Part shown: positions 11,991 to 13,584 of the stretch, in pieces
Layout: the number at the start of each line of letters is the position of its first letter
Numbering within the stretch: the stretch's first letter is position 1
DNA from: a virus
Taxonomy: Duplodnaviria; Caudoviricetes
Strand: one strand, 5' to 3'
Length of the DNA stretch: 36,868 nucleotides
Virus record (IMG/VR): IMGVR_UViG_3300047557_000313
Span: 1-36,868 of that record
The notes under the pieces: generated by a model
Told to the model about the DNA's origin: nothing
Seen by the model: only the letters and a program-made list of their open reading frames with translations
The model's database searches: none
Program-made: the position numbers and the translations under genes

Positions 11991-12527
11991 ATCGACAGAC
12001 ACAGGTCTATAGATTTCTTTTATAGCCAGCAGTTGACCCCTAGCCTCTGGTGTGCAATCCCGTCCATCTGTGGCGATGTGGTGATCCCAGATGTCTCTCA
12101 GCCTGGAGTCTTGCTTGACACCTCTCCAGAGCAGCATGACAGCCTGTGCTGACTTTGGATGCTTTGCCCAATGCAACGGATCGTATGCTGGTGTCCTGAT
12201 CTGCCTGACTGCTGACTCTATGATCCGCTGGCCTTCTGGAGTGATCTCTTTCGCCGGTGGTGGCAGCGCAGGTTTGTGTTCTGCCCTGTTGTGTTCCTTG
12301 CAGAGCTTGATCCACTGCGCGAGTGATGGAGGCCAATCCGGTGGATCTGTCCTTAGATGGTCTAGGACGCGCTTGATGACCTCTGGTGGCGTCGATCTGA
12401 GCTGATCCTCCCAGGCATCCTTAGCGGCAGCAATCTCGGCTGGAGTCGATCCAAACTGAGTGAGAACTTTTTGCCTACCCCAGAGCAGACCAAACCGCTC
12501 AATCAACCGTTCGCAATAGCTCTGCAT
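11988..12527 (-). CDS. Replication protein P-like (putative helicase loader)
   Basis: ERLIERFGLLWG....QF.......KDAW...L and DWPPSLAQWIKLC resemble lambdoid P-like proteins; directly follows the O-like domain. Confidence 0.6.
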   Translation of the reverse strand: MQSYCERLIERFGLLWGRQKVLTQFGSTPAEIAAAKDAWEDQLRSTPPEVIKRVLDHLRTDPPDWPPSLAQWIKLCKEHNRAEHKPALPPPAKEITPEGQRIIESAVRQIRTPAYDPLHWAKHPKSAQAVMLLWRGVKQDSRLRDIWDHHIATDGRDCTPEARGQLLAIKEIYRPVSVD

Positions 12528-12793
12528 CTTGCTTGCTCCATGTCAATGATGTTGCGCCCGGTGAGCTGATCCCAGAGATCCTGCTTTTGGGTCTTTTTTC
12601 CTACCCAGTCAGCCTTAAAACCTCTCCAGCCCATCAACACCATGTGATCTAGAGCCTGCTCTAGCGTCCATCCTGCTTTGTGAGCTTCATCCCTGATTTT
12701 TTTCACTACTCGAACAGTGATGATTGCTCGTTTGGCTTTTCTGTGGGCAATGAAGTCATCCCAACACTCTTGCGTGACATCTTCTGGTTTCAT
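12503..12793 (-). CDS. Stand-alone C-terminal domain of a lambdoid replication initiator (O-like)
   Basis: ATG 12793 with CAGGAG RBS; KPEDV..ECWDDFIAHRKAKRA.IT......I.DEA.KAGWTLEQAL......GWRGFKADW pattern; no N-terminal HTH. Confidence 0.65.
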   Translation of the reverse strand: MKPEDVTQECWDDFIAHRKAKRAIITVRVVKKIRDEAHKAGWTLEQALDHMVLMGWRGFKADWVGKKTQKQDLWDQLTGRNIIDMEQARCRAIANG

Positions 12794-12869
12794 GGTTGCT
12801 CCTGTGAGAGTGCGTAGCATAGTGCTTTCACTGCTCGATGAGTGATGATTTTTTTGTATTGATTTCTGA

Positions 12870-13160
12870 TGATCTATAGCTTTATTTCTACTTAGGTATA
12901 GATCCCCCAGGGTGGTAGCCATTGTCTAGCTTCCCACCTCTCCCACCACTGCCTATGCTGACAGGGCCAGAGTACCTAGCGGCTGCGATTCATCCATCAC
13001 TGCTGGGTCTACCACCCTATCAGCAATGATGTTGTCCAGTACCTCGCAGAGAGTCTGGTCGGCAACAATTCGGGTGAGGATTGGCCGGTGTTTTCTTCCG
13101 CGCAGCCCATGCAGGCTCTTGCTGTCGTGCGGAGTACGCCCAGCAGTTGCTGGGATCGAA
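12870..13160 (-). ncRNA. Candidate large structured RNA / replication-origin element
   Basis: At least seven hairpins and two long-range loop pairings; stem mismatches are G-U wobbles on the minus strand; no ORF of 60 aa or more except an RBS-less in-frame extension of the O-like ORF. Confidence 0.6.
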
Positions 13161-13166
13161 TAGTCC

Positions 13167-13439
13167 TTACTTCATTGACTCATCAACAGGCTTTCCACGC
13201 TCAATGCCAACACGATGCTTGATCTCAATGGCATAGTAGGTAAAGTCAAAATGACCGTGACTGATTGCATTGGATGCGTATTCCCTGCATCTCTCGATGG
13301 CCGTTTCTAAGCTGTCGTGCAGGAATTTAAACTTTGCTGATTGACCAGACTCAGATCGCATAAAGACTGCAAACTTAGGGTCTGTCGCACTGTGCAATTG
13401 CTGCACAGTCTTTTTGTTTGTACTAGTCTCGCCTTCCAT
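13167..13439 (-). CDS. Hypothetical protein (90 aa) embedded between two structured non-coding blocks
   Basis: ATG 13439 preceded by GAGGTAAGG; MEGETSTNKK...KFAVFMRSESG...HDSLETAIERCREYA...YYAIEIKHRVG. Confidence 0.65.
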   Translation of the reverse strand: MEGETSTNKKTVQQLHSATDPKFAVFMRSESGQSAKFKFLHDSLETAIERCREYASNAISHGHFDFTYYAIEIKHRVGIERGKPVDESMK

Positions 13440-13475
13440 GACCTTACCTCGTGCGGTTGACTTGGAGTGGCGCGG

Positions 13476-13584
13476 AACAAACAAAAAAGCCCTTAGTGCT
13501 ATCCCCTCGATGGAAACCCAGACCGGAGAGACTGGGCGAGAGGTAGCATTAAGGGCTTTCAACTGTCGGTTTCCATGCCAACAG
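13476..13584 (-). ncRNA. Structured leader RNA (hairpin, multi-stem, pseudoknot) ending in a U-tract
   Basis: 5' hairpin CTGTTGG-CATGGAAA-CCGACAG; long stem AAAGCCCTTA/TAAGGGCTTT with nested TGCTA/TAGCA, CCTCTCG/CGAGGGG, CCCAG/CTGGG; loop ATGGAAA complementary to the TTTCCAT bulge; followed by a U-rich tract. Confidence 0.7.

Follow-up and report, generated by a model that had tools for sequence, protein, structure and literature searches.

A predicted four-pseudoknot RNA of freshwater phages located upstream of headless replication initiators

Introduction

The O initiator of phage lambda binds iterons through its N-terminal half and P through its C-terminal half. Lambda replication requires transcription over an origin that consists of iterons and an AT-rich tract (PMC5043065, PMC3349717), and ColE1, as described in PMC5043065, opens its origin via a persistent RNA-DNA hybrid. 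According to PMC4825925, an RNA attenuator acts as the gate to the replication genes of P4. The plasmid motifs ARRPOF, GEBRO and PAGEV are structured elements of 220-350 nt tied to replication regions; ARRPOF, 255 nt long, contains four pseudoknots, and its region replicates without a rep gene (PMC5737381, PMC12990946).

Here we analyze a virus genome of 36,868 bases, the whole of which is referred to as the window. It is a complete virus record (completeness estimate 100%) with the gene content of a tailed phage, and its matches come mostly from freshwater metagenomes. A sequence-only reading of the window had proposed that a folded RNA encoded on the minus strand stands in place of the DNA-binding half of the initiator and might mark the replication origin. 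The window does not encode a lambda-type full-length O with an N-terminal DNA-binding domain: the O protein matches only profile positions 219-291, and DUF1376 was not found in the window's own record. The features of the locus are listed in Table 1.

Table 1. Features of the replication locus in the window
Feature	Position	Strand	Basis or remark
Attenuator-like leader, long hairpin ending in U tract	13484..13582	-	5' word 13576-13568 complementary to bulge 13518-13510
90-aa ORF between leader and RNA	13167..13439	-	most relatives lack this ORF
Predicted structured RNA, whole conserved core, ~235 bases	12904..13138	-	homolog alignments, covariation; match of its own covariance model 12898-13147
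5' double-pseudoknot domain	13089..13138	-	covarying pairs
P1 13138-36/13128-26; pseudoknot 13133-30/13100-097; single pair 13129-13122	within 13089..13138	-	
Hairpin 13118-14/13107-02, loop pairing 13109-08 with 13090-89	within 13089..13138	-	
Hairpin P3	13060..13087	-	loop word CACCC 13076-72 nearly invariant
Hairpin P4	13036..13058	-	loop 13049-44 pairs with 12988-83
Hairpin P5	12996..13031	-	loop 13016-12 pairs with 3' tail 12915-11
2-bp hairpin 12982-75, crossing pair 12979-12968, helix P7 12972-66/12946-40	12940..12982	-	
Conserved 3' tail	12904..12915	-	CCACCC word, then G run
AT-rich tract, candidate unwinding element	12845..12900	.	
Stand-alone C-terminal domain of O-like initiator, 96 aa	12503..12793	-	phrog_678, positions 219-291 of 346 only
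P-like helicase loader, 179 aa	11988..12527	-	weak match to phrog_109, E 4e-05

Results

Genes adjoining the element

Among the cluster representatives searched, the O domain nearly always forms the C-terminal end of longer proteins (200-300 aa), and the short form accounts for the top three matches. A 139-codon frame (12503-12922) overlaps the 3' part of the element; its N-terminal extension (12794-12922) is not kept in relatives and was dropped as a coding candidate. Joining of the upstream ORF to the O domain by an intron or by read-through was likewise dropped, because this ORF is missing from most relatives, where the O domain has its own start. The 90-aa ORF, which in the window is inserted between the leader and the RNA, had no PHROG or Pfam match. 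Other insertions lie on the opposite side of the RNA: a PAPS-reductase-like gene of ~307 aa separates it from the headless O gene in L019, L020 and L008, and small ORFs or methyltransferases occupy this position in other relatives. Family A polymerase was found in none of the 28 near-complete records; therefore, host enzymes are apparently used.

A new family of probable structured RNAs

Relatives of the element were gathered first via the O-domain protein and subsequently by DNA pattern searches of viral, metagenomic and genomic collections; chance pattern matches (L040, L048, L052, L054, L067, L071, L072, L081 and similar ones) were removed by profile search. The profile detected the element in 550 of the 789 collected loci, with 220 distinct full-length sequences and at least 109 versions under 90% identity, all these counts being lower bounds for the family, with many loci representing one contig collected more than once. 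The 100 representatives of an earlier set had a median pairwise identity of 51%. A search of Rfam 15 yielded no matches at or above the gathering threshold in the window, with four chance matches at E 3-10 near the element, and none in 20 family loci; among the 40 loci scanned in all, no match fell on the copies of the family. No description of the family was found in Rfam or in the papers searched, and the consulted text of bioRxiv 10.64898/2026.07.01.735769 contains nothing on it. Judged by these sequence comparisons, the element belongs to a real and new family, most likely of RNAs, that is common in freshwater phages.

The only match in GTDB genomes came from a river metagenome bin, and the element was not found in INPHARED (three queries) or PLSDB (one query). 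All 20 records inspected for copy number contain one copy, and one of these, G032, adds a partial 5' duplicate, a second copy of the 5' domain (43792-43846) that directly precedes the full element. A version in L192 (902-1113) lacks most of helix P7 and keeps the tail; with this internal deletion, it was left out of the 108-version covariation set. In one freshwater DNA run, the summed contig depth over 12914-13115 was 66-105 vs 0-34 in the flanks, which is consistent with many different phages sharing the element.

Secondary structure and pseudoknots

All seven stems and both loop complements described in the sequence-only reading are present in the window. The minus strand folds better than shuffled sequences (z -3.09, with 1 of 100 shuffles as good), compared with z -2.06 for the plus strand, and a 10-nt long-range complement arises by chance in 17 of 500 shuffles of the stretch. 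Covariation was assessed with our own R-scape-like script, in which an APC-corrected G-test is compared with a null obtained by shuffling substitutions along the tree. Across the 108 versions, 23 column pairs reached E <= 0.05, all of them canonical. In a 65-row alignment, a 55-pair model was 94% paired, with 40 pairs changing on both sides, and slid controls dropped to 34-42%, although the scoring favours the model, which was drawn from the same 65 sequences.

Compensatory changes were observed for the previously proposed stems 13097-101/13129-33, 13104-07/13114-17, 13060-69/13080-87 and 13036-39/13055-58 and for the 11-bp stem. Of the remaining three, the 13139-54 hairpin falls within the 5' flank, which is variable, the 12949-64 stem belongs to a variable arm and has one pair at E ~6, and the 12871-904 stem is beyond the extent of the alignment. 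Three other pseudoknots and two single crossing pairs had been missed. Taken together, the alignments predict a conserved structure with four pseudoknots.

Both long-range loop pairings of the earlier reading could be examined by covariation, with opposite outcomes. Pseudoknot 1, between the P5 loop and the tail (core 13016-12 with 12911-15), is paired in 107 of 107 versions and undergoes a G-C/A-U swap, the pair 13012-12915 being G-C in 78 and A-U in 29 of the 107. Conservation extends to only about 5-6 of the 10 pairs, and the halves are exactly complementary in 97 of 100 representatives. The early search patterns required both halves of this pseudoknot; when the scan was rerun without that requirement, about one third of the new versions had GGTGA with TCACC. 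Pseudoknot 2 (13079-72 with 12944-37) found no support: it shows no covariation, and 12940 and 12941 covary with 12972 and 12971, placing the 3' strand in P7. The pseudoknot formed by the P4 loop is represented by 8 complementary word pairs in 99 of 100 representatives, and all 108 versions pair 13048 with 12984. No RNA partner covaries with the P3 loop word CACCC, a copy of the 3' tail word. All five versions with a C-to-U change after ACC in the tail have U in the P3 loop, vs 5 of 103 otherwise, a joint change that amounts to about two independent events.

The compact multi-pseudoknot fold, the invariant unpaired nucleotides and the single crossing pairs would also suit a ribozyme or another element that processes the transcript by cutting it, perhaps so that a defined 3' end forms at the tail. 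We consider this quite improbable, given that neither the window nor the 40 scanned loci gave an Rfam match and that the helix order is unlike that of HDV-type ribozymes in a by-eye comparison of topologies. Such an activity would be compatible with the origin model set out below and does not exclude it.

RNA versus single-stranded DNA

G-U outnumbers A-C by 299 to 29 at 28 paired columns. This excess establishes the strand, although on its own it does not distinguish RNA from single-stranded DNA. The C(UUCG)G loop, the stability of which is RNA-specific, caps the 12982-75 hairpin in 14 of 107 versions. These loops, the G-U excess and the position behind the leader together indicate that the element is most likely RNA rather than DNA. 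Under the alternative explanation, a folded single-stranded DNA would be exposed during replication as a priming or assembly site. G-T wobble suits DNA hairpins too, and comparative methods, as stated in PMC5737381, cannot reliably separate structured RNA from folded single-stranded DNA; however, the C(UUCG)G loops, the invariable location of the element behind a promoter-like leader with a U tract and the dense tertiary pairs all make a DNA structure very unlikely.

Two metatranscriptome runs contained one RNA contig at the locus, covering 13243-13461 only, and no RNA contig over the element, an absence that proves nothing. No sigma-70 consensus was found in the window region around the element. 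The 80 nt after the element are AT-richer than the local background in 103 of 108 versions. GC skew does not switch at the element in 20 records and is uninformative for the origin.

Association with headless initiators

Two protein families link the element to initiators that lack the N-terminal half. In family 1 (O domain, 94 loci), the element lies 100-1,300 nt upstream of all 36 short forms, one of which is cut by the contig end, and is found at none of the 58 other loci (56 with at least 120 open codons upstream and 2 cut by the contig end); the covariance model agrees with these counts. The 36/36 association may be one event, because these cases form essentially one clade; in addition, many loci are near-copies. 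Family 2 is a different stand-alone C-terminal initiator domain (positions 172-249 of phrog_9474/9327/270), for which the best 80 of 559 loci were examined, 72 headless and 8 full-length. An element is present at 64 of the 72 headless loci, namely this RNA (36), Betaproteobacteria-1 (21), a third type (5) or a fourth type (2), and absent from 8 (4 of which have less than 700 nt of flank), and the 36 carriers of this RNA include an AT-rich subtype with further compensatory changes. None of the 8 full-length loci carries any of these RNAs and, over both families, none of the 66 control loci with full-length initiators (2 of them cut off) carries the RNA. This RNA and Betaproteobacteria-1 share no locus among the 789. 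Fold and sequence searches with the two retained initiator domains gave nothing clear: the best Z values in the fold search were 5.0 and 5.7, and the DnaD-domain entry 2i5u had Z 3.5 and rmsd 3.1 with 54 aligned.

The third type (L670:2049-2272, L671, L672, L675, L680 and L375:1199-1373) shares the 5' double-pseudoknot domain; its 3' half differs and ends in a hairpin and a G6 run, and L375 contains both the third type and the main family. The possible fourth structured element was seen twice upstream of a headless initiator (L728:3301-3490 and L689:2156-2346). Betaproteobacteria-1 (L720:3137-3260 and 20 similar ones, for example, L725, L732 and L748), also upstream of headless initiators, runs ~75-80 nt past the Rfam model, with more conserved hairpins in this extension. 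Headless domains in L701, L716, L735 and L741 have flanks of 3.5 kb in which none of the four element types occurs; these loci may harbor further RNA classes or be exceptions.

Thus, the idea that a folded RNA takes the place of the DNA-binding half is supported by two protein families in which the element is linked almost exclusively to headless initiators, but it does not hold always: the element also precedes capsid, terminase and helicase genes, and 27 carriers that are at least 90% complete, when read manually, comprised 12 with a headless domain, 7 with a full-length initiator-like protein, 7 with neither and 1 unclear case. In G017 and G032, an intact O protein consisting of DUF1376 and the C-domain is encoded 10-12 kb from the element. 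Stand-alone DUF1376 ORFs of ~106-120 codons occur near the replication region (G003:6139-6378, G004:37804-38046, G017:49883-50122). It is doubtful that those of G003 and G004 are the split-off head, because G017 has one beside an intact initiator.

The attenuator-like leader

The element is preceded by a leader with a long hairpin, and in 87 of 106 cases a U4 tract lies immediately upstream of the element. The 5' word of the leader is complementary to the bulge over at least 7 nt in 63 of 88 leaders, vs 2.6 expected, and the word varies; in the window, it is phage-specific and 7-10 nt long. Such a word could encode incompatibility or immunity groups. The leader had no Rfam match. By eye, a leader with a hairpin and a U tract is recognizable in the same slot before many full-length O genes of related phages. 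The distribution of contexts on the RNA tree shows that the leader and the RNA travel as one cassette.

Other genomic contexts

Among 151 distinct elements with enough flank, the next gene encodes the O domain in 40 cases, the second domain in 34, a ParB-like protein and helicase in 14, the major capsid protein in 27, another virion protein in 8 and other products in 28, the share of the O domain being inflated because the first searches were seeded with the O-domain protein. Replication genes are thus downstream of 88 elements and capsid or virion genes of 35, and several elements precede terminase. The O-domain cases make up essentially a single clade of the RNA tree, in which the virion and terminase cases are nested; family 2 contexts appear in at least four places, and non-O contexts recur at several places. 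The capsid-type loci have a separate TTGACA-type promoter after the element, a pattern found in 22 of 108; in G001, G008 and G013, such a promoter and a conserved structured capsid leader of ~150 nt come after the element.

These contexts bear on two further explanations. The put RNA makes RNA polymerase terminator-resistant, and the element could similarly be a cis-acting transcription element, either put-like or a leader that controls the downstream operon. Consistent with this possibility, the element opens early or late operons whose genes share its strand, and it is present in phages with intact initiators. However, a role in transcription leaves the N-terminal loss of the adjacent initiators in two families unexplained, the RNA sits after the U tract of the leader, the capsid-type loci have their own promoter after the RNA, and the downstream genes have no common function; on balance, we regard this explanation as unlikely. 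The second one is a trans-acting structural RNA, for example an RNA of the packaging motor, of which phi29 pRNA is a case, or one that forms oligomers, as ARRPOF does. The virion- and terminase-associated copies agree with it, and the conserved unpartnered loop could pair between molecules, but replication modules hold more copies and the link to headless initiators would go unexplained, so that the chance of such a role appears very small.

Discussion

The RNA occupies the slot of the O head, is under replication-type control, occurs once per genome and leads into a G run and an AT tract. For these reasons, we propose, with moderate confidence, that it is part of a transcription-gated RNA origin that replaces iteron binding and still uses the C-terminal half of the initiator and the loader. 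The RNA would be made from an upstream promoter upon read-through of the attenuator-like leader and would act on its own DNA as an origin marker, replacing the missing DNA-binding half of the initiator. The nascent RNA would fold behind RNA polymerase and might remain attached to the DNA, forming an R-loop or bubble at the CCACCC/G-run tail beside the AT-rich tract, where the C-terminal domain of the initiator would load the helicase together with the P-like loader or, in other members, a phage helicase. The RNA might in addition supply the primer, like RNA II in ColE1. A cassette with its own promoter and control would work elsewhere in the genome, which would explain the copies among virion genes.

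A more elaborate and rather doubtful possibility is a hybrid RNA-protein initiator in which the RNA forms a two-loop clamp on its own origin, with several unrelated RNAs serving as interchangeable initiator heads. In this clamp, loop L5 (GGUGR) would base-pair to the tail word on the non-template strand, and the partner of loop L3 (CACCC) would be the template strand, so that a bubble would be held beside the G run and the AT tract and would be used by the headless initiator and the loader. The interchangeable RNA heads of phage initiators would include Betaproteobacteria-1. The compensatory change observed for pseudoknot 1 is expected whether the loop pairs with the RNA tail or with non-template DNA and is thus compatible with the clamp. 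The joint change of the tail and L3 in a few versions is a hint in its favour.

If the RNA is indeed an origin, phages would have repeatedly handed origin recognition from a protein domain to an RNA, an intermediate between the protein-iteron origin of lambda and the protein-free primer of ColE1. A testable function would thereby be available for a large new RNA family and for the orphan Rfam family Betaproteobacteria-1, and the variable word of the leader suggests a built-in copy-control or immunity code. Whatever the function, a 235-nt RNA that has four predicted pseudoknots and exists in more than 100 diverged versions is an attractive subject for structure determination and ribozyme assays.

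Comparison with known systems

The leader resembles the P4 CI RNA and the P1 c4 attenuator (PMC4825925): it carries a variable word that is complementary to part of a terminator-like hairpin, and it lies ahead of replication functions. This likeness concerns the leader only, not the structured RNA.

ARRPOF resembles the phage RNA in size and pseudoknot count. Unlike ARRPOF, GEBRO and PAGEV, the RNA described here belongs to a phage rather than a plasmid, is linked to truncated initiators and has no Rfam match; the ARRPOF covariance model (RF02933) gave no matches at E up to 10 in the window's record. Betaproteobacteria-1 (RF02932) takes the place of this RNA at 21 of the 72 headless loci of family 2. 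It is unrelated in sequence to this RNA: RF02932 misses the window and the family, and 11 matches on other loci show that the model works.

ColE1 RNA II, like the proposed phage RNA, is a non-coding transcript from an upstream promoter that opens its own DNA and needs no sequence-specific initiator domain (PMC5043065). RNA II is 550 nt long, compared with ~235 nt for the phage RNA, and is controlled by a small complementary RNA (PMC5043065). In place of an antisense RNA I from the opposite strand, the phage has a same-strand attenuator-like leader. Furthermore, ColE1 replicates without an element-encoded initiator, whereas the phage keeps the initiator C-terminal domain and the P-like loader and, in this respect, is not of the ColE1 type. 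The phage locus shares with the lambda O/P origin the O-like C-terminal domain, the P-like loader, the AT-rich tract and, under the proposed model, the need for transcription (PMC5043065, PMC3349717). Lambda O, however, keeps its N-terminal DNA-binding half, whereas the phage lacks that half and has the putative RNA in its place.
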